64,000 bases of DNA from sequence record OR296290.1; one strand, 5' to 3'. The notes beneath the pieces are model-generated. The model was not told where the DNA came from. It ran no database searches and saw nothing but the letters and a program-made list of their open reading frames with translations. The translations under genes and the position numbers were made by a program. Positions 9,063 through 57,774 of this stretch are shown here, piece after piece. The stretch's first letter is position 1; the number at the start of each line of letters is the position of its first letter. The DNA is from Escherichia phage SDYTW1-F1-2-2_3.

Positions 9063-10259
9063 TTAGTAGTTTACAACAGTGCCATCATTCAGGGTAAGGC
9101 TATTAATCTGCAACACACGACCAAGCTGACGATCGCTAATCGGTGCGTTCCAGCCAGAGCGGTAGAAGTTACGACCACAGAAGAACAAGATCACATTACT
9201 TGCTACAGTCGAACCGTTTTCAGGATGCTTGATGTTAGCGATATAATAACCACGACGCAGATTACGACGGGTTACCGGGTTGATCTCTAACCCTTGTTCT
9301 TCAACTTGCATTGTTTCAGGAACAGGCTCCGAAGACTCTTCAGCAACTGGCTCGGCTGCCAATGCAAAGTTCTCATCACCTGCTGATTCAGCAAATTCTT
9401 CTTCCACTTCTTCAACAGGCAGTTCGTAAGCAACACGGTAGTCAGGATCAACACCAGAGAAGCTCTTAACAAACTCAACAATATTGTGAGTATAGGTTTC
9501 CAGAGTTGTTCCAGTCAGTCCCGGAGCTGTATTGACTTCCAGAACCCAAGCGTTAGTTCCTTTGCTAATCAGATCAACAGCACCGAAGTTCAAACCCAGA
9601 GCAGATACAGCTTTGTGAGCTTGAATCAGAACTTGATCAGGAGGTGCTTCAGTGAAGGCGTTAGAATAAACCCAACCAGTGTGGTGGTTGCGAATATCTT
9701 CACGATAACTTTCCAATTCACGATAACCGTTACGACGAATCTTCTTCTGAACGTAAGTGATAACACCCTCAAACACATGAACACGCCATTCACGACGTGG
9801 GCCTTGGATACCTTTGGTGTACAGAGGAGCATCTGCAACACCTTCTCGTGTAAGACGAACAGTAATACCTTCTCCAGAGTGACCAGTTAAGGTTCCACGT
9901 TCATAAACAATTTCATTCCGGTTCCAGTTCTGAGCTACTTCACGATCGATGGTGTATTCAACAGTTTTGACTTCAGCTAAACGCAGTGCGTTAAATGCTG
10001 CAACTTTGTTAGCCGCTCGGTTCAAGGCAACCACAGAGTTCAACACAGTTGCGCCACCGAAGAAAGAATCGTTGTATCGACGGTTTCCGTAGTTGACAAC
10101 AATATCACCAACCCGAGAACGATAACGAGAACCCTCTGATACCAGAGACATTACGTTAGCATTTAAGCGAAGTTCCTGAATCTTAGTGTTAATTGCAGAA
10201 GTAAGTTCACGAACTGAATCAGAAGGGCCATAAGGAAGAACACGGATACGAGTAGTCAT
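9063..10259 (-). CDS. ATP-grasp ligase (RimK-like)
   Basis: ALGLNFGAVDLISKGTNAWVLEVNTAPGLTG matches ATP-grasp C-terminal motif; acidic C-terminal extension. Confidence 0.7.
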   Translation of the reverse strand: MTTRIRVLPYGPSDSVRELTSAINTKIQELRLNANVMSLVSEGSRYRSRVGDIVVNYGNRRYNDSFFGGATVLNSVVALNRAANKVAAFNALRLAEVKTVEYTIDREVAQNWNRNEIVYERGTLTGHSGEGITVRLTREGVADAPLYTKGIQGPRREWRVHVFEGVITYVQKKIRRNGYRELESYREDIRNHHTGWVYSNAFTEAPPDQVLIQAHKAVSALGLNFGAVDLISKGTNAWVLEVNTAPGLTGTTLETYTHNIVEFVKSFSGVDPDYRVAYELPVEEVEEEFAESAGDENFALAAEPVAEESSEPVPETMQVEEQGLEINPVTRRNLRRGYYIANIKHPENGSTVASNVILFFCGRNFYRSGWNAPISDRQLGRVLQINSLTLNDGTVVNY

Positions 10260-10702: not shown

Positions 10703-12733
10703 TTAACCTCTATTCAATGAACATTTAGGAGAATTACAATAAACTTGATTCATAGAACCAAGCGTACAACTTTCAGCATCGCGCCACGGAATCTGCTTAA
10801 AACACTCTGAGCAGTAGCCGAGGGTTGACCACATGGCTTTGGTGAAGTCAGTGCTTCGGTTTCCGTCGAAGCTGACAACAGTTTTGCGGAGAGCTGTTCG
10901 TGATTCAGGAAACACACCTGCTTTCTCAGCAGGTTCCTCCTTTTTTGGCTTAGTTGAGATTGCAAAAATACTGTTGCTACGTTTCTCAACATAAGCATCA
11001 ACAACATCCTCCAGAGTGATGCCTGTCTGTTTCGCTGAGGAAGGTAATACAGTCATACGACCGATCATATCTTCAGTTACACGTAAAGCAAACTCAGGAC
11101 GACGGGCGTTTGTTGTATCTGTTGCTTTAATCCAGACATAACCATCTTTGATCGTAGCATTAGATACCTTCTTCTTTACATCTACAGCGCAGACTTTACA
11201 GATATCTTCACCACGAAGACGACTAAGTTCTTCATCGAACTCATTCTCCGTTTTAACTTCACCGCAGATTTCACAAACACCAATAGGAGTTTCCTCCTCT
11301 TCTTCATCTTTAGGTTTAGTCAAACCTTCCAGACATTCAGGGTGCCAGTAGCATTGATATGCGAAGACTGCTTTAGGTGCATCCTTCCAATCAATGTGTT
11401 TGTCACAACCACCGCAATCACCATGAGAGTGTGCTTCCCAGAATTTACGAGTGATAGTAACGCCATTCTTGTTGACGAAACTATCATTCATATCAAAAGG
11501 GATATCATCATCGAAGTCAGCAGTAGTAGACTCAGGCTCCTTTTTCTCCAGAGATGGGTCAACAAAACGACCTGCTGTGATTACTAAACGAACCATAGCA
11601 TTAACTTCGGAGATGCAGGATACTGTCCCACGGTAAACGATTTTAGGGTCTTTCAGGGCATCCTGATAAGCCTTAATGTCTACGTTATGAACATCGCCTT
11701 CAATATACTCTTGAGACTTCTCATCGTAGATATAACCAATCATCTTACCACGAGAAGGAACAGCACCAGCTGTTGCATAAGGAACAAACTCATGTGGTGT
11801 GATTTCCACAGTCATGTCGCGGCGAATGTCAATGTTTCGATCGCTTGCGATTTTGTTTTGACTTACCACTGCGTTTCTTCGACGAACGTCTGCCGCTGTC
11901 ACTCCCGGCTTCGTGTCGTAAGGATTGCTTGTACTGCTTTTTGAGGAACTTTGATAATTGCTTTGGCTGTAGTTGTTCGAGTAGTAATTGCCCCAACGAT
12001 TGATTACCGTAAAAACCGGAAGCTCGTGGGCGACCTCTTCAACTAGAGTCATACTGTTGTTTGACATATCAAAGATATATTCTGTACCAACTTTACATTC
12101 AAAGTGCTCATCAATTCGGTTTTTGTGAGACTTAGAACGCTTCAGAATCCACATCAACATGTCTTCTTCAGAAGCACCAAACCAATCTCTGTTACAACGT
12201 GCGAGATGGAAAGGACGCTCTTCATTACGGATGATATGAAGGCGGTTATCAGAAGCATCATGCCAGATTAAGGTGAAAGCACCATCCAGCTTTTGAATAG
12301 TCTCTGCTGCACCAATAGTGTTAATAGAGTGGCAGATGTTCTCACTGTCTACCTCGAAGTTTTTGCTGTCAGGTAACAGATCTTGGTCCATCAAGGTTCC
12401 GTTATGAACCAGAGTGATGTTACCATGTTGGAAAGGATGGGCGTTCTTGGCGTTAACTGCACCTTTCGTTGCATGACGGCTGTGACCAACAATCCATGAA
12501 GGCGCTACAGTGTAAGCTGTTTCACCAGTGGTGTGTTTCTTGTACTCATCTTGAAGGATGAATGCGAAAGAAGGAAGTGCCTCTTTATAAGTGAAGACTT
12601 CCTTAGTGCTCTTACGCTGACCAAAGATACCAGAGGAATGTTGCCCTCGGAATACCCCAGCATAAAAGAGTTGGTTAAATACGTCTAAATCAGTGCTTGA
12701 CAGATTACCGCCAGCTAATACGATGCCACAAAT
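10703..12733 (-). CDS. class-II (Ntn) glutamine amidotransferase with Cys-rich C-terminal region; probable AUU start
   Basis: Frame open upstream of track start to 12736; manual translation (I)CGIVLAGGNLSSTD...GHSRHATKGAVNAKNAHPF is a GAT-II Ntn domain. No ATG/GTG/TTG precedes Cys; AGGTGG SD lies 7 nt before ATT. Confidence 0.65.
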   Translation of the reverse strand: MCGIVLAGGNLSSTDLDVFNQLFYAGVFRGQHSSGIFGQRKSTKEVFTYKEALPSFAFILQDEYKKHTTGETAYTVAPSWIVGHSRHATKGAVNAKNAHPFQHGNITLVHNGTLMDQDLLPDSKNFEVDSENICHSINTIGAAETIQKLDGAFTLIWHDASDNRLHIIRNEERPFHLARCNRDWFGASEEDMLMWILKRSKSHKNRIDEHFECKVGTEYIFDMSNNSMTLVEEVAHELPVFTVINRWGNYYSNNYSQSNYQSSSKSSTSNPYDTKPGVTAADVRRRNAVVSQNKIASDRNIDIRRDMTVEITPHEFVPYATAGAVPSRGKMIGYIYDEKSQEYIEGDVHNVDIKAYQDALKDPKIVYRGTVSCISEVNAMVRLVITAGRFVDPSLEKKEPESTTADFDDDIPFDMNDSFVNKNGVTITRKFWEAHSHGDCGGCDKHIDWKDAPKAVFAYQCYWHPECLEGLTKPKDEEEEETPIGVCEICGEVKTENEFDEELSRLRGEDICKVCAVDVKKKVSNATIKDGYVWIKATDTTNARRPEFALRVTEDMIGRMTVLPSSAKQTGITLEDVVDAYVEKRSNSIFAISTKPKKEEPAEKAGVFPESRTALRKTVVSFDGNRSTDFTKAMWSTLGYCSECFKQIPWRDAESCTLGSMNQVYCNSPKCSLNRG

Positions 12734-12812
12734 TTTCTAATCCACCTGAAGGGTAAACCCTTTCATCTAATTAACCTTTAAATTGTGCCCCTTTGCCAGA
12801 GGCACCCATTGA

Positions 12813-13916
12813 TTACAGCGCTTGCTCTAACTGATTTTCCAGATGATCTGGAATGTACCCTGTGATGTTGTTATCACTGTGTCCTGACTCACGTAGCAAG
12901 TCAAAAATAGCACGGATACGTTGCTCTGGTGCAGATCGTACAGTAGATAGATCGGTAGTACGAAGCATAACCAGAATCTCTTGGTACAAGTTGTTAGCGT
13001 TCCCTCGGACATATCCAAGGAATCCGTAGAAGTCTGAGATATGACGTAGGTCAACAAGAACTTCTCCGTTGGAGTTGGTTCGACGTAAACGAATACGACC
13101 AGACTGTTCTACTTCATGAGAACGACAATACAAAACATCACGGGCCATACAATACCCTGAATGCAAGTCCGACTCGTCCAGATTGTAATCCAGAGGAAGG
13201 TAAGGAAGCATTGGGGCAAATCGTACAGTATTTAAATGCTCGATAAACTGATCATTGCTCATCTCTGCGTTATCTAAAGCCAGCTTCTTCAACATCAAGA
13301 AGCGGTTAACCAGATTGAGAAGTTGACCACGTTTCCACTTAGGCTCACTGATACGGAACTCAATCGAACCATATTGGGCAAGTGGCAGAAGGTTCAGAGA
13401 TGTATATTTATCCCATGAACGAACCAGACGGTTGAAGAACTCTTCATCGTCGTAGTTAAATGCGTCAGAGGCATTCATTACCTGTGCTTGTACCACTGCG
13501 AAAGCAGGGCAGAAGTTGCTACGGTAACGATGGTAGCCTGAACACTTGAACAACATCTTTTCATAGAAGGTCCAAGCGAGAATGGTTTTCTTGAGGATAT
13601 TACTATCAGCATCCCTCATATCCATATGAACGTGAGTAGAGCAACGCCAAGTCCCCTCGGCGTGCGATTCAGCTACAGCTTCACTCAGGTTGTTGATAGC
13701 GTCTAACAACTCCTGTCCGTTGTAAGGTCGTGAACATACCATTTCACAACCATTACGCAGGGAACCATCCTCTGTACAATCCCACATATCTGCTTCGATA
13801 TGATCGGAACCTTCGAGTTCAAGTTCAATACCGACACCGCACTGAAGTGCAATTGAACTATGCGCCTCAGTTAAATGACCTTCTCGATATCCAAAAGTTT
13901 GCGCTACAGTTGTCAT
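12813..13916 (-). CDS. amidoligase (glutamine-synthetase-like)
   Basis: GVGIELELEG...DGSLRNGCE...CSTHVHMDMRD pattern of GS-like amidoligases. Confidence 0.6.
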   Translation of the reverse strand: MTTVAQTFGYREGHLTEAHSSIALQCGVGIELELEGSDHIEADMWDCTEDGSLRNGCEMVCSRPYNGQELLDAINNLSEAVAESHAEGTWRCSTHVHMDMRDADSNILKKTILAWTFYEKMLFKCSGYHRYRSNFCPAFAVVQAQVMNASDAFNYDDEEFFNRLVRSWDKYTSLNLLPLAQYGSIEFRISEPKWKRGQLLNLVNRFLMLKKLALDNAEMSNDQFIEHLNTVRFAPMLPYLPLDYNLDESDLHSGYCMARDVLYCRSHEVEQSGRIRLRRTNSNGEVLVDLRHISDFYGFLGYVRGNANNLYQEILVMLRTTDLSTVRSAPEQRIRAIFDLLRESGHSDNNITGYIPDHLENQLEQAL

Positions 13917-14530
13917 AATGAATCCACCAACGTAATATTGTAATTGCTAAGGTTTTCAGAAATGTGATGAAAGTGTTCCAGAAGTCGCATCGGTTGCTGA
14001 CCGTAAGAGTCACGAGGCGCTTCCAGATCTACTTGTCCTACCAGTGCACCTTTATAATGCACCTTACCATCAGTAGGGTTGATGTAAATATAACGAGTGA
14101 CCAATCCTTCGAATTCAGGATTGAACAGACTGTAAACCATCTCCCCGGAGATAGCACGACCAACACCCGGAGCATTTCGAATCTTGTTACCCATCAAACC
14201 CTTTGCTCTCTGACGAACAGGGTTAATATGAGTCCAGCTTACAGTGTTACCGTTATGGAACAGATAACCAACATCAGGTGATTCAAGAATCAAGGTTGGG
14301 TCGAACACTGGAATATTCATCGTAGTATTTCGAAGATTCCCTTGCTCGTTCTTGTACCACTGCTCTACAACAAAGTACAGAGCCTGTTCTGCTTCGTGAG
14401 AGAAGTCATCACTGCGGAAGTTACCGCTCTGCTCAACACCAATCACAAAACACGGAAGGTTGATATTACCTGCTCGTTTAGCAATCCATGTACCATTATA
14501 GTAATGAGAAAAATCAGCTACTAAGCTCAC
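13913..14530 (-). CDS. hypothetical protein (205 aa) within ligase cluster
   Basis: Track ORF, 4-nt overlap with upstream gene; no motif recognised. Confidence 0.5.
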   Translation of the reverse strand: MSLVADFSHYYNGTWIAKRAGNINLPCFVIGVEQSGNFRSDDFSHEAEQALYFVVEQWYKNEQGNLRNTTMNIPVFDPTLILESPDVGYLFHNGNTVSWTHINPVRQRAKGLMGNKIRNAPGVGRAISGEMVYSLFNPEFEGLVTRYIYINPTDGKVHYKGALVGQVDLEAPRDSYGQQPMRLLEHFHHISENLSNYNITLVDSL

Positions 14531-14539
14531 GATAACCTC

Positions 14540-15349
14540 TTATGCTACCTGAAGGAGTTTGATCTGCTGGTCAGCTTCTTTAACGTTGTTGCCGTTAATG
14601 ATTTCATGAAGCTTCTCAATCGGAAGGCGAGAGTGCAATGCCATCAGAGTGGACATATCACACTGCTGAACAACCTTGTCAACCTGATCGTAAACAAACT
14701 TACGATTTTCACGATCACTAATCCAGAAATTAGACAGTGAACGATATTCAATACCGTAGTCTTTATAACGGATTGCAGACGCTTTACCGTAGAGTTCTTT
14801 ACGGCGAGTATCTTTATCCATAATAACTGCTGGAAGAGATAGGAAGTAATCACACAACACACCCAGCATCATCTGAGTTTGCAGAGTGATATCCAAAGCA
14901 CCAACTACGCCGAGATGTACGTGACCACCGGCAGTACGAAGTCCCTTATTCTGAGAAGTCGGGGATGGGTTCTTCTGACCAGTGAAAGCGTTGAAATCAG
15001 GAGTGCATCCGAAGATGAACGCTGATTCATTGAAAGTCTTCATCTCTTCTTCAGTGAAGATGTGAGAGCTAACACCCGGAGCTGTTTCCATGTCCAGTTT
15101 GTTCAGGACATTGTTGGTGAGATCGATACCACGTTGCATGTTATCGTTAAACGCTTCAAAGCCGCTCTGTGGGTCAATATCAAACTCAGCCAGTACGTTG
15201 TCCTCTTGAAGACGAACATCCTTAGCCAGAGTGATCTTATCGTCCTTAGAACAACCTAACAGACCAGCTACAGAGGTGATAATACCATTGCTGGTACGAA
15301 CGAACATTTCCGGGTCGCTTCCTATTAAGAATTTACGTTTAGTAGTCAT
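14540..15349 (-). CDS. amidoligase-like paralog (269 aa)
   Basis: FLIGSDPEMF ... AGGHVHLG parallels the G-x-E-x-E and HVH motifs of 12813-13916; weak. Confidence 0.45.
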   Translation of the reverse strand: MTTKRKFLIGSDPEMFVRTSNGIITSVAGLLGCSKDDKITLAKDVRLQEDNVLAEFDIDPQSGFEAFNDNMQRGIDLTNNVLNKLDMETAPGVSSHIFTEEEMKTFNESAFIFGCTPDFNAFTGQKNPSPTSQNKGLRTAGGHVHLGVVGALDITLQTQMMLGVLCDYFLSLPAVIMDKDTRRKELYGKASAIRYKDYGIEYRSLSNFWISDRENRKFVYDQVDKVVQQCDMSTLMALHSRLPIEKLHEIINGNNVKEADQQIKLLQVA

Positions 15350-54047: not shown

Positions 54048-55100
54048 ATGTCTTTATTTGGAAAATCAGCTTCTAGCAAAACCACAGTGGCTCCTTCCTC
54101 TCAGGTTGATGCCCTGCTGAAGCAGATTGTTGCTAATGCTCAGAATATGCAGAACAACGATCAGGGATTTATTTCCCAACAGCTGGCTGGGTTTAATGGC
54201 AACCAACAAGGTGCTCTGAATAACTTAGCAGCTTCTACAACTCAAAAGCAATTGGCTGATATGTACACACCTCGTACACAGCAAGGTTTGGACCAACTGA
54301 ACTCTCTTGCCAAACAGTATCAGAATATTGTTAATGGTGGCGGTTTAACTGCTGATGGTGTTAACAACTTTAGTAAAGGATTAAATAGCTCAGCTCTTGC
54401 TCAGGCTACTAGCAAAGCAGCTTCTAATGTTTCTCTTGGCAATGGCTCTGATTCAGGCTCTCTCCGTAGGGCTGCGGCTCAAGGGGCGGCTTTGAATGGT
54501 GCTAATACAAATCTATCTCGTACCATCAATGGTAAGAACATGGGAATCAGTGCTCTTCAACAAGACCAGAACTTCCAGAGAGGTTTGCTTGGTGCTCAGT
54601 CTGGTTTAGCTGGACAGAATCTCAATCTTGGTGCTCAAGGTGTTCAGTCAACTCAGCAAGCTATCCAGAATCAACTTATGGCTGGTAATCTACAACAGCA
54701 ACAAGCTCAAGCTCAAGCAGATATCAATTGGCAAAACGCTATTGGTTCTCAGCAGTATGGATGGAATCAGCTTAACAACCAGCTTAATGTATTAAACAGT
54801 GTAAGCCCAATGGCTGGATACACAATTAAGAATGCTGCTCCGGGGGTTAATACTGGACAACAGCTCCTAGGTGCTGGTATCACTGGTTTAGGTATTGCAG
54901 GTCGTATGGGAGCTTTCTCTCCTAACCAACAGACTCAGAATGCTTGGAGTTCCTATAACAACTCAGGTGGGCAGTCTGGTATGGCTGGTCCTATGATTGG
55001 AGGTTCTAATCTTTCTCAACAGAAAGGTCAGTCTAACTGGTTATCCACAACGGGTAATAATATCTTAGGCGGTGTCTTAGGGGCATTCGGAGCAAACTAA
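54048..55100 (+). CDS. Gln/Asn/Gly-rich low-complexity protein (paralog 1)
   Basis: 350 aa; N-terminus MSLFGKSASSKTT...GFNGNQQGALNNLA parallels the next gene. Confidence 0.5.
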   Translation: MSLFGKSASSKTTVAPSSQVDALLKQIVANAQNMQNNDQGFISQQLAGFNGNQQGALNNLAASTTQKQLADMYTPRTQQGLDQLNSLAKQYQNIVNGGGLTADGVNNFSKGLNSSALAQATSKAASNVSLGNGSDSGSLRRAAAQGAALNGANTNLSRTINGKNMGISALQQDQNFQRGLLGAQSGLAGQNLNLGAQGVQSTQQAIQNQLMAGNLQQQQAQAQADINWQNAIGSQQYGWNQLNNQLNVLNSVSPMAGYTIKNAAPGVNTGQQLLGAGITGLGIAGRMGAFSPNQQTQNAWSSYNNSGGQSGMAGPMIGGSNLSQQKGQSNWLSTTGNNILGGVLGAFGAN

Positions 55101-55112
55101 AGGAGATTTGAT

Positions 55113-56081
55113 ATGGCTTTATTTGGAGGAGGGAATAGTAAAACTACTTCCCAAATGATTCGCCCTGAATACATTCAACAGTATATTGACCAGCTTAACC
55201 AACAGATTGGTAATACTAGTTCAGGGGATTATGTTTATCGTGACAATGTAGGATTTAATAACAACCAGACAGAAGCTCTTAACAACTTGGCACAATCTGG
55301 CGCTCTAGGGACTCTCTCGCAGCAATATATGGATGCAGCAGGTCAAGGGTTAGGTTATCTGGATAATGCCTATAAAGGCTACCAGAGCCTCTCTGGACAA
55401 GGTGGGATTACTGGAGAACAGATTGGTGCTCTTGCTGGTCAACTGTATGATGACGATGCTGTGCAAGCAGCTATTACAGCTAATAATGAACAAGTTCAAC
55501 AGAACCTAGCACGTAATGCTCTTCCTCAGCTAGCTCAACAGTATGCTGGTCAGCAGGGTTCAGGTGCTCGTATGGCTAAGTCTTTTGCTCAAGGTGATGC
55601 TCTGAATCAGATGCAAAGCCAAGCAACAGATATTACTAACAGTGCTTATAACTCGGCTATCAACCAAGCTGAAAGCATTCTCTCTGGTAATAGACAGAAT
55701 CAGGCAGCTGCTCTCTCAGGTCTTTCTACTATTGGTTCTAACCTTTCCAATTTAGGTCAACAAGGTGCTGATCTATCTCAACAACAAATATTAAACCAAT
55801 GGAAGGCTGGGTTGCAGCAACAACAGCAACAACAGAATGAATATGATAATGCCTACCAGAATGCTCAGAACGCAGCTAATTGGGGATGGCAAGATATCAA
55901 CAACCAACTCGGTGCAGCAGGTGTACTTAACGGCGCTCTCGGACAAACTACAACTACTAAAACATCTGGTGGGGGTGGTGGCTTCTTAGGTGGAGCTATG
56001 AGTGGTGCAGCAGCTGGCTCTTCTTTTGGTCCTTGGGGTGCCTTGGCTGGAGGGGTGATTGGCGGGATGGCTAGTTCTTAA
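55113..56081 (+). CDS. Gln/Asn/Gly-rich low-complexity protein (paralog 2)
   Basis: 322 aa; MALFGGGNSKTT...GFNNNQTEALNNLA. Confidence 0.5.
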   Translation: MALFGGGNSKTTSQMIRPEYIQQYIDQLNQQIGNTSSGDYVYRDNVGFNNNQTEALNNLAQSGALGTLSQQYMDAAGQGLGYLDNAYKGYQSLSGQGGITGEQIGALAGQLYDDDAVQAAITANNEQVQQNLARNALPQLAQQYAGQQGSGARMAKSFAQGDALNQMQSQATDITNSAYNSAINQAESILSGNRQNQAAALSGLSTIGSNLSNLGQQGADLSQQQILNQWKAGLQQQQQQQNEYDNAYQNAQNAANWGWQDINNQLGAAGVLNGALGQTTTTKTSGGGGGFLGGAMSGAAAGSSFGPWGALAGGVIGGMASS

Positions 56082-56094
56082 TTAGGAGATAAAT

Positions 56095-57774
56095 ATGCAA
56101 CAGACAACTTACGCTCAGGTCAGAAGTCGTGACCCGAGAAATACTTTCTATGGTGTTAATCCGGGAGCGGCTTCGGCCTCTCCTTATATGGCTAGACCTA
56201 CTCAGACAGCGGATGTTTCTATGTACCAGCGTCCTGCTGTACCTTCATCTCTCGCAGGTCTTGTCTCTCAGGCAGAAGAAGATCAGAATGCTATGGTGAA
56301 TCCGGGATTCCAGCAACGTCTTATGGAACAACAGAATCAAGGAACCCCAACAAGTCTTCAGGGTATTGACATTGGAGCACCAGCCCCTGTAGCAGCTAAT
56401 CCTAATTTATCTACTGATCAAGGTTTGCAGGATGCTGGACTTATGCCTAGTGACCCTCTTCCGGTGACACCTCCTGCCAAGCCACTAGAAACTGGTCCTA
56501 TGGAGTTTACTCCTTCTCAGGTTGAACAAGCACAAGGTGTTGTTAATACTCTTGCTCAAGGACAAGACACCGGTGACGGAATGGCTGCTGCTACTCGTAC
56601 TAAAGATCAAGAGCGTGTTAACAATGATATCTTGCAAGTTGCAAAAGCTAAAGATCCTTCAGAAGCTTGGAAGAAGTTACAGAAAGAACCTTTCTATCAG
56701 AACTCTAGTTTCTATACAGGTTTAATGGGTGTAGGTCTTTCTATCATGTCAGGTAAATCTCCTATCGAAGCATTCCAGATTGGTCAGGGGATGGCTAATC
56801 AAGATGAGACTAAAAAGCAACTGGAAGCTAACCGTGATGCTCTGATTGAACAAGGTTTCTCTCAAGACTCAATTGCAGCTGCTATAGCTCAGGGTGATCC
56901 TTCTCTTCTGAAGATGAAAGCTAAAGACCCTCTTCAACAGGAAGCTCTGTATGCTGCTCGTGAAGAACGTCAGAATGCTGAGTGGGATAGACGTCAAGCT
57001 ATCAATGAAGAATCTGCTGAGAGAAACCGTAAGGCTACTTTGGAAAATCAGTTAGCTCTGGCGGAAGCGCGTGGTGAGATTACTCGCGACAACCTTTTGT
57101 TCAAGAAGGATCACAATGTTCGTAGAACATCTCCCAAGTGGGAAAAAACAGAGGAGCTTGGTGGTATTACTCCTAACTTGCGAGATAAATTACAGCAATC
57201 TTATCGTCCTGTTATTAATGTCCTAGCTTCTCGAAACAAGTGGATGGCTCCTACAGAGGCTGCTATTTCTAAACTAGGAACTGGTGCAAATTCTCAAGAG
57301 AACTCAGCTCAGCAACGTGCTGCTATTGAGAACTTGACTAAACTTATTCAGGGTGGTTTAGCTTCTATTAACGGAGAAGTTATGAATGAGCTTACAGGTG
57401 ATCCAGATTGGGTTAACAACAAGTTGAATAAGATTCAGATGATGGCAGGTCAAGGTCCGACCGAAGCAAATATCAAGTGGCTTAAAGCACTCGGTACAGA
57501 GATTCAAGAGATTGATAAAGAGGCAACTAAGTACCAAGTAGCCCCTCTAGTGGAATCTTTGATTCTTGATAGTGGTTTGGCTCCTGAAAATGCTATCAGA
57601 GCTGCTAACTCTATTTTTGCTCCTGGCTCTGTTCGACTCACTACTGAGGAGTTTAAAGAATGGTCTCGTGGACATAGTAAAGTTCACGATAAAACATTCC
57701 CTGATGACAAGCCTTCTAAATTGAAGGGTGGTGCTTTATCTGGTTCTTCAGATACTAGCTGGTTCACTCAATAA
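56095..57774 (+). CDS. internal virion/ejection protein (putative)
   Basis: 559 aa in late block after SLT and Q-rich genes. Confidence 0.45.
   Translation: MQQTTYAQVRSRDPRNTFYGVNPGAASASPYMARPTQTADVSMYQRPAVPSSLAGLVSQAEEDQNAMVNPGFQQRLMEQQNQGTPTSLQGIDIGAPAPVAANPNLSTDQGLQDAGLMPSDPLPVTPPAKPLETGPMEFTPSQVEQAQGVVNTLAQGQDTGDGMAAATRTKDQERVNNDILQVAKAKDPSEAWKKLQKEPFYQNSSFYTGLMGVGLSIMSGKSPIEAFQIGQGMANQDETKKQLEANRDALIEQGFSQDSIAAAIAQGDPSLLKMKAKDPLQQEALYAAREERQNAEWDRRQAINEESAERNRKATLENQLALAEARGEITRDNLLFKKDHNVRRTSPKWEKTEELGGITPNLRDKLQQSYRPVINVLASRNKWMAPTEAAISKLGTGANSQENSAQQRAAIENLTKLIQGGLASINGEVMNELTGDPDWVNNKLNKIQMMAGQGPTEANIKWLKALGTEIQEIDKEATKYQVAPLVESLILDSGLAPENAIRAANSIFAPGSVRLTTEEFKEWSRGHSKVHDKTFPDDKPSKLKGGALSGSSDTSWFTQ

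Follow-up and report, generated by a model that had tools for sequence, protein, structure and literature searches.

A probable ATT start codon for the glutamine amidotransferase gene of Kuravirus phages, and the recurrence of weak starts with strong Shine-Dalgarno sequences in its family

We have analysed a window of 64,000 nucleotides from Escherichia phage SDYTW1-F1-2-2_3 (OR296290.1). The window belongs to the phiEco32-like phages (genus Kuravirus): the 2.7 kb around the start site discussed here are 99.4% identical to Escherichia phage NJ01 and 96-98% identical to about 70 further members of the genus. On its minus strand lies a gene whose product is, judged by its sequence, a full-length class II (N-terminal nucleophile, Ntn) glutamine amidotransferase (GAT) with predicted activity. 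The comparisons below indicate that the ATT at 12733-12731, directly before the codon for the catalytic cysteine, is very probably the real start codon of this gene. Additionally, ATT, ATC and TTG starts recur among its phage relatives, where they are associated with strong Shine-Dalgarno (SD) sequences and with a hairpin just upstream. The features of the region are listed in Table 1.

On the minus strand an ATG (12766-12764) is followed by AAA GGG TTT ACC CTT CAG GTG GAT and a TAG (12739-12737), then by AAA (12736-12734), ATT, TGT (Cys, 12730-12728) and GGC ATC GTA, encoding C-G-I-V. After the TAG no stop interrupts this frame until 10705-10703, and counted from ATT it has 676 codons. The initial annotation, made from the sequence without database searches, had noticed that this frame is open for 112 codons before the first ATG, GTG or TTG and that only ATT and AAA separate the TAG from the Cys codon. 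Both observations were borne out: the earliest canonical codon is the TTG at 12394-12392, codon 113 from Cys. When every stop-to-stop frame of 120 codons or more was surveyed across the window, only one real gene had a long lead lacking a start codon, namely this one (114 codons); antisense shadow open reading frames (ORFs) came next.

The start-less part is conserved as coding sequence. When the window is compared with three diverged Kuravirus clades (Bas89, Bas88 and 101114BS3), codons 1-112 differ at 0.68-0.77 of synonymous sites (pS) and 0.14-0.16 of non-synonymous sites (pN), and the ratio of non-synonymous to synonymous change (dN/dS) is about 0.09; codons 113-222 give similar values in the same clade comparison. 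This shows that the start-less part is under purifying selection and indicates that it is translated. Orthologs from other lineages have ATG directly before the Cys codon. These include Privateer, GAP52, SE131, PKM.Hi.22.6, LAh_9, Pseudoalteromonas HP1, Pantoea TacPo2, PaP3, Lyrsu03, QDWS535, GP100 and VpJYP1, which span Grimontviridae, Lahexavirus, Zobellviridae and others. At this position every Kuravirus examined has ATT, including clades that are only about 75% identical in nucleotides. The 69-nt block 12781-12713, which contains the ATT, occurs in 96 GenBank phage records (68 have it in identical form) and in a further 7 metagenome contigs. Since these genomes were sequenced independently, a sequencing error is excluded. 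Mass spectrometry of phage SU10 identified 9 peptides of the orthologous protein (PMC4281155), which shows that the gene is expressed. Taken together, the gene has no canonical in-frame start ahead of its conserved coding sequence, an ATT at the position of the ATG of its homologs, conservation of that ATT between strains and an SD-like sequence at functional spacing. The proposal in the initial annotation that initiation at ATT gives the N-terminus M-C-G-I is thus supported by the ATG at the same codon of the orthologs and by the invariance of ATT in about 100 genomes, as well as by other lineages (below) that have ATT or ATC and no alternative start codon. The sequencing error or pseudogene that it had also considered is refuted by the conservation in independent genomes, the dN/dS value and the detection of the SU10 protein.

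The protein read from ATT matches Pfam GATase_6 with 55.1 bits (cut-off 27) and GATase_7 with 27.4 bits (cut-off 25). A profile of the orthologs matches the structures of GlmS, PurF, AsnB and GFAT with the Cys at the N-terminus (E 1e-9 to 1e-5 for GlmS, PurF and AsnB). In the human GFAT1 chains, query residues 1-168 align with chain residues 1-188 or 2-189 and Cys1 meets the N-terminal Cys. Cys1, Arg85, Asn110-Gly111 and Asp128 are invariant among 10 diverse orthologs (alignment A1), as is Arg28-Gly29, which sits with Cys1 in codons 1-112; the motif GH.R.AT.G, Asn110-Gly111 and Asp128 align with the GlmS motifs HTRWATHG, VHNG and ETDTE, and the conserved residues correspond to the glutamine site of the four structures. 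Residues 1-517, beginning at the Cys, match positions 2-498 of phrog_4736, and in three PHROG profiles the Cys aligns with position 2, which suggests that the family consensus is M-C. The GATase domain occupies N-terminal residues ~1-230. In the C-terminal ~415 residues (10703-11950, minus strand) there is no Pfam domain and phrog_4736 is the only match. Several CxxC pairs are found here (among them CGGCDK...CYWHPEC, CEICGE...CKVCA and CSECFKQ...CNSPKC), and the region takes the slot of the synthase or acceptor domain of cellular class II amidotransferases. By profile match, GlmS, PurF, AsnB and GFAT belong to the same fold family, with the N-terminal Cys, the Arg, the Asn-Gly and the Asp conserved. 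They carry an isomerase, phosphoribosyltransferase or synthetase domain, whereas the phage protein has its unrelated C-terminal region instead and, unlike them, is encoded within an amidoligase/ATP-grasp cluster. The E. coli genes glmS, purF and asnB begin with ATG.

The claim that this single gene starts at ATT is not new, because the ATT start is already in the reference annotation, though inconsistently. The orthologous gp83 of phiEco32 (YP_001671828.1, 'L-glutamine-D-fructose-6-phosphate aminotransferase') shows no real difference from the window gene: the start region is 96.8% identical in nucleotides, and both coding sequences (CDS) are 2031 nt long and open at ATT. In RefSeq the phiEco32 gene is phi32_83 (56523..54493), and the CDS of the BASEL phages Bas88 and Bas89 are also begun at ATT. 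The records for NJ01, Paul, 172-1, YF01, BUCT695, FBPa8 and Klyazma have a truncated gene with a downstream canonical start. In NJ01 and Paul the truncation produces a false intergenic gap of 420 nt (window 12392-12811); the annotated NJ01 version is 562 aa long, and the internal start deletes the catalytic Cys together with 112 residues. We infer that the truncation arises as gene callers skip ATT. No discussion of the gp83 ATT start was found in the literature covered.

The leader in front of the ATT is the most conserved part of the region. The initial annotation had placed an AGGTGG Shine-Dalgarno element 7 nt upstream of ATT; the element is present (12747-12742), and the spacing is 8 nt, the same as in 16 other ATT or ATC initiation regions with the layout GGAGG-N8-ATY. 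Upstream of it a 5-bp hairpin can form, and RNAfold gives -5.6 kcal/mol for positions -42 to -14. Across three Kuravirus clades the 69-nt block is the most conserved stretch of 1.7 kb: the invariant fraction of 30-column windows is 0.93-1.0 within it and 0.2-0.8 in the coding sequence around it, and between the same clades synonymous sites are near saturation (pS as above). The mini-ORF in the leader shows no synonymous variation and may or may not be constrained as coding sequence. The leader motif is single-copy in the window.

Three relatives share features of this leader. Aeromonas phage BUCT695, from another family and with a protein 56% identical, has the same leader with two changes, one in the hairpin loop (UUAA, the stem being unaltered) and one that converts GGTGG to GGCGG; it keeps the mini-ORF ATG (MKGLTLQAD). 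L308, a phage contig from a Herbiconiux assembly, reads gCTGGAAAGGGAtttaTCCCTTggagaGGATTAGTAAATT TGC and retains hairpin, SD, TAG and ATT; its stem is lengthened to AAGGGA/UCCCUU, and the mini-ORF ATG is replaced by CTG. L274 reads GGAGGATTAGAAAATT TGT, the Kuravirus initiation region (TAG-AAA-ATT) with a perfect GGAGG. The TAG is kept in all three, in L308 as TAG TAA. Scans for further variants of the Kuravirus-type leader returned identical Kuravirus copies only, and an Rfam search of the leader gave only chance matches below threshold, with no riboswitch or known cis-element.

Two other foldings of the leader were rejected. A long-range helix of minimum free energy (MFE) round the initiation region (GGUUAAU/AUUAGCU, GAUG/CAUC) had a z-score of -1.39 and its outer helix is lost in BUCT695. 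A hairpin that would sequester the SD (GGUUUACC/GGUGGAUU) is broken by both BUCT695 changes without compensation, and the AAGGG/CCCUU hairpin is preferred for this reason. The phi32_gp36 promoter (tAATGTAtA, PMC8948821) matches the Kuravirus leader at 6/9 positions only and was also rejected, though AATGTAA-like strings occur upstream in relatives, and no sense-strand sigma-70 promoter was found at the leader. An element TTTAAATGTAA(A/T) lies 20-45 nt 5' of the GAT start in several Grimontviridae-like phages, namely L010 (BUCT695), L007 (GAP52), L006 (Privateer), L141 and L144; it resembles the phiEco32 gp36 promoter element, and the Kuravirus version is degenerate (TTTAAAGGTTAA). Gene conversion by a homing endonuclease was considered as a cause of the leader invariance and was rejected, since in phage YF01 the HNH endonuclease gene lies 3' of the GAT gene, away from the leader; it is inserted directly 3' of that gene (L303 2502-3008) and is not in the window.

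In order to see the wider family, initiation regions were anchored on the Cys codon. The sample came from two IMG/VR scans with protein alignments, the second seeded with ATT/ATC members, from isolated phages and from a few genome-assembly contigs. The 138 unique regions, in each of which the start codon adjoins the Cys codon, comprise 88 with ATG, 28 with ATT, 8 with ATC, 12 with TTG and 2 with GTG. The ATT/ATC cases that were checked have their nearest upstream in-frame stop at a distance of 2-20 codons, and the codons from this stop to the Cys include no canonical start; in a few exceptions a distant in-frame TTG, GTG or ATG is present. Examples are Pseudomonas phage FBPa8 (ATT; cggaggataaaattATT TGC) and Klebsiella phage Klyazma (ATC; cggaggataatactATC TGT), both annotated as truncated. 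The 63 genes annotated in FBPa8, by comparison, start with ATG (52), GTG (7) or TTG (4). To our knowledge ATT and ATC starts are almost absent from genomes normally. Bacterial homologs amounted to 8 loci only, mostly phage contamination, and provided no cellular comparison set. A scan of IMG/VR with the degenerate pattern GATTAGAAANNNTGTGG was unspecific (120 mostly chance matches, 2 true) and was abandoned. The actinobacterial Herbiconiux daphne assembly NZ_JANLCJ01 contains several short contigs (L305-L308, 560-924 bp) that encode a phage-type amidotransferase 48-60% identical to the window protein, and the starts are TTG, GTG and ATT. DNA of enterobacterial-type phages appears to have contaminated this assembly.

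The start codon differs even between close relatives. Klyazma/L221 (ATC) and L266 (ATT) have 98.9% protein identity, and Klyazma and L262 (TTG) 99.4%; FBPa8/L222 (ATT), L224 (ATC) and L223 (TTG) are about 90% identical. Among these relatives the ATT/ATC differences are point changes in one shared initiation region. Upstream of the TTG versions (L262 and L223) lies another cassette (of the type TTGGAGGTGYAAT TTG), and initiation regions thus seem to be exchanged by recombination. A neighbour-joining tree requires no fewer than 28 changes between ATT/ATC and the remaining start codons, a figure that leans high because the deep branches of the tree are unreliable.

Weak starts in the family go with strong SD sequences. 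The median energy of pairing with the anti-SD is -8.85 kcal/mol for ATT, -8.35 for ATC and -5.95 for ATG regions (ATT/ATC versus ATG, p = 3e-7), and TTG/GTG regions likewise pair more strongly than ATG regions (p = 2e-4). A GGAGG 7-9 nt before the start occurs in 18 unique regions, of which 12 have ATT, 4 ATC, 1 TTG and 1 ATG (Fisher p = 5e-8). One point change would make any of these starts ATG, so that selection seems to disfavour an ATG behind a strong SD.

Hairpins show the same association. In about 20 of 33 ATT/ATC regions a hairpin of 5-7 bp, often with a GUU loop, ends 0-1 nt 5' of the SD, and the median MFE of positions -42 to -14 is -5.3 for ATT, -3.6 for ATC and -0.65 for ATG (p = 4e-8). 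A covariance model was built from six such regions; of the 25 sites that it found, 24 are at GAT starts. In an alignment that was fitted to the model and contains related sequences, 97% of cells pair, double-sided changes occur in 6/6 pairs and 0/500 shuffles reach the observed value; sliding the pairing partner lowers pairing to 19-58%. The hairpin at the start site is a real conserved structure. Its link with weak starts is an association that does not imply a mechanism. We define here, with no published family to refer to, a hairpin-SD-AUY module as a hairpin of 5-7 bp, 0-1 nt, an SD, 8 nt and AUU or AUC. The window layout (AAGGG-UUUA-CCCUU, C, AGGUGG, 8 nt, AUU) fits this module; its membership rests on architecture and not on score, because the covariance match is weak. 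That ATT, ATC and TTG are used recurrently in this family, in company with strong SDs and a covarying hairpin, has apparently not been described before.

We consider it likely that one explanation accounts for these data jointly: a full-length class II amidotransferase that starts at AUU 12733, recruitment by the SD, removal of Met and selection for a weak start. The SD-like AGGUGG(A), 8 nt 5' of AUU, would recruit the 30S subunit with the small conserved hairpin just 5' of it, and initiator fMet-tRNA would read AUU 12733-12731 despite a mismatch in its third position. An N-terminal extension would be barred by the in-frame UAG, which lies in the SD-start spacer two codons ahead of AUU. Deformylase and methionine aminopeptidase would then strip the Met and leave Cys1 as the free N-terminal nucleophile. 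A weak start behind a strong or structured ribosome-binding site would on this account be a selected trait of the family. Its likeliest purpose may be to limit how much of the glutaminase subunit is made; it may otherwise make synthesis sensitive to initiation factor 3 (IF3) or to initiation fidelity. In an E. coli reporter AUU and UUG yield 6-8 fold less than AUG (PMC3592434). More tentatively, and with rather less confidence than doubt, we suggest that the family may carry an evolutionarily mobile weak-start module, in which a covarying hairpin, a near-perfect SD and 8-nt spacing accompany a start codon that drifts between AUU, AUC and UUG and avoids AUG.

Several points weigh against this explanation. 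The initiation regions are phylogenetically non-independent, and the seeding of the second scan with ATT/ATC members inflated their share; in the unbiased first scan ATT/ATC was found in 9 of 71 regions (13%) outside Kuravirus. The covariance model scores the Kuravirus site weakly (14-17 bits, E 0.2-0.9; window 14.4 bits, E 0.94), and in FBPa8 the hairpin energy is unexceptional within its own genome, ranking 11th of 64 genes. The mass-spectrometric search of SU10 used the truncated model only and is uninformative on the N-terminus (PMC4281155). Finally, GGUGG mismatches the anti-SD centrally and BUCT695 has GGCGG. This suggests that direct recruitment of the 30S subunit may be weak, and that another route such as reinitiation may contribute.

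Such a route would be termination-reinitiation, in which ribosomes start at the mini-ORF AUG 12766, melt the hairpin, stop at UAG 12739-12737 and restart at AUU. The SD, lying inside the mini-ORF, would hold the ribosomes; AUU 3 nt downstream would still be the start codon, with delivery dependent on the mini-ORF. The spacing of stop, 3 nt and AUU equals that of E. coli thrS-infC (UAA GGU AUU), at which estimates give reinitiation and de novo initiation about equal shares (PMC3592434), and this geometry makes reinitiation after the mini-ORF a live secondary mechanism. Consistent with this, BUCT695 retains the mini-ORF ATG despite its two other changes, the whole leader is invariant in nucleotides, and in L203 a mini-ORF of 5 codons stops 4 nt before ATT. 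However, L308 has lost that ATG to CTG and yet keeps hairpin, SD, TAG and ATT, and the mini-ORF ATG of BUCT695 has no SD. In the two further cases checked, the upstream gene of FBPa8 ends about 36 nt before ATT and the upstream frame of L186 ends before the hairpin. We regard this route as unlikely, at perhaps one chance in a few.

It is improbable that the 69-nt block is kept for a role at the level of DNA or antisense RNA (a regulator site, or a transcript from the plus strand), with ATT as a tolerated by-product. The nucleotide invariance of the block, which exceeds that of the flanking coding sequence, would fit such a role, as would a sigma-70-like TTGACA-16-TACGAT (10/12 positions) on the plus strand at 12697-12724, aimed into the leader. 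The -35 hexamer, however, is not kept by the other Kuravirus clades, chance alone would give about 0.9 matches of this kind in the stretch, and the ATT/ATC starts in unrelated leaders of the family would be left unexplained.

Direct initiation at AUU also has to be weighed against readthrough of the TAG, the alternative put forward in the initial annotation. Some class II amidotransferases carry propeptides, and the mini-ORF shares its frame with the GAT gene, so that initiation at ATG 12766 and reading of UAG would produce a 12-residue propeptide to be cleaved to Cys1 as in B. subtilis PurF. The data speak strongly against this. Arg(TCT) is the sole tRNA of the window, and the other 13.8 kb of NJ01 (99.4% identical) have no tRNA, so that neither yielded a suppressor tRNA. 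TAG is a normal stop here: it terminates 4/48 long ORFs, with another stop 0-3 codons on each time. ATG adjoins the Cys codon in 88/88 unique ATG-start relatives, which indicates a family without propeptides. L308 has CTG for the ATG and two in-frame stops (TAG TAA), and both BUCT695 changes in the mini-ORF are non-synonymous (F to L, V to A). Taken together, the L308 and L274 regions, the 88 propeptide-free relatives and the tRNA and TAG usage suggest that the TAG belongs to the SD-start spacer, and we give readthrough hardly any credence. Equally remote is the reading that an annotated internal TTG or ATG is the true start and the upstream 112 codons are untranslated or decaying (a pseudogene or sequencing error): most public records do use a downstream canonical start, but codons 1-112 have a dN/dS of about 0.09, include the invariant catalytic Cys1 and Arg28-Gly29, and are arranged in the same way in 96 independently sequenced genomes.

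For initiation at AUU there are parallels in bacteria. The closest structural analogy is E. coli infC, where the thrS-infC junction has, like UAG AAA AUU here, a stop 3 nt upstream of AUU together with an SD (PMC3592434). In infC the AUU serves autoregulation by the gene's own product, IF3, and the upstream ORF is a full gene, whereas the phage product is an amidotransferase with no feedback known and its upstream ORF has 9 codons. The closest functional analogy is E. coli pcnB, encoding poly(A) polymerase, in which AUU limits the level of a harmful enzyme (Binns and Masters 2002, as cited in PMC3592434). In contrast to this single chromosomal gene, the weak start of the phage enzyme recurs across the family and alternates between AUU, AUC and UUG, with strong SDs and a hairpin. 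PurF and GltB of B. subtilis need a free Cys1, as the phage enzyme does; they obtain it from a propeptide made from a canonical start, whereas the phage gene has a stop between the upstream ATG and the Cys and its relatives have no propeptide.

The amidotransferase gene lies in a minus-strand cluster (Table 1). It is the phage cluster of amidoligase, GAT-II and ATP-grasp genes that PMC10580990 credits to Iyer et al. (2009). Directly after the amidoligase stop is a further stem-loop, in which Kuravirus clades show compensatory differences (GUGCC..GGCAC versus GCGC..GCGC); GC-rich hairpins are found in the equivalent place in Privateer, SE131, GAP52 and PKM.Hi.22.6. This stem-loop may be a partial terminator, or an element for RNA processing or stability in the early operon.

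Table 1. Features of the amidotransferase locus and its surroundings in the window (minus strand)
Feature	Position	Strand	Remarks
COOH-NH2 ligase gene	14540-15349	-	Minus-strand cluster
Gene without assigned function	13913-14530	-	Minus-strand cluster
Amidoligase gene	12813..13916	-	Directly upstream gene; Amidoligase_2, phrog_7469
Intergenic stem-loop	12785..12805	-	After amidoligase stop; arms GUGCCUCU / AGGGGCAC; from fold and clade comparison
Ultra-conserved block	12713..12781	-	Leader and first 6 codons
Mini-ORF ATG..TAG	12737..12766	-	9 codons (MKGFTLQVD), in frame with GAT gene; role uncertain
5-bp hairpin AAGGG-UUUA-CCCUU	12749..12762	-	Ends 1 nt 5' of AGGTGG (C12748 between)
SD-like AGGTGG	12742..12747	-	8 nt before ATT; GGTGG in place of GGAGG
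In-frame TAG	12737..12739	-	Two codons before ATT; inside SD-to-start spacer; ends mini-ORF
Probable initiation codon ATT (AUU)	12731..12733	-	Only near-cognate codon between in-frame TAG and Cys1
Catalytic nucleophile Cys1 (TGT)	12728..12730	-	Column C1 invariant in alignments A1 and A2
Internal TTG	12392..12394	-	Start in many public annotations (NJ01, Paul); mis-annotation
Class II (Ntn) glutamine amidotransferase CDS	10703..12733	-	676 codons; ortholog of phiEco32 phi32_83
Two small ORFs		-	Between amidotransferase and ATP-grasp genes; minus-strand cluster
ATP-grasp enzyme gene	9063-10259	-	Minus-strand cluster
tRNA-Arg(TCT)	21745-21821	-	Sole tRNA gene in window

The N-terminus of a class II amidotransferase is chemically fixed, because the Cys must be residue 1, and the choice of start codon can therefore be read independently of annotation. 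Gene callers limited to ATG, GTG and TTG remove the catalytic Cys and up to 112 residues, so that the affected proteins look inactive. Read out from Cys1, this phage enzyme family has 13-26% ATT/ATC starts, tied to strong SDs. If the weak-start module suggested above is real, it would provide the first well-supported natural AUC starts in phages of enterobacteria and pseudomonads, and glutaminase synthesis would be set at start-codon selection (for example by IF3 or by the fidelity of the initiator tRNA) and not at ribosome binding. The family is a natural system in which to ask why a weak start is selected and whether phages exploit initiation fidelity.

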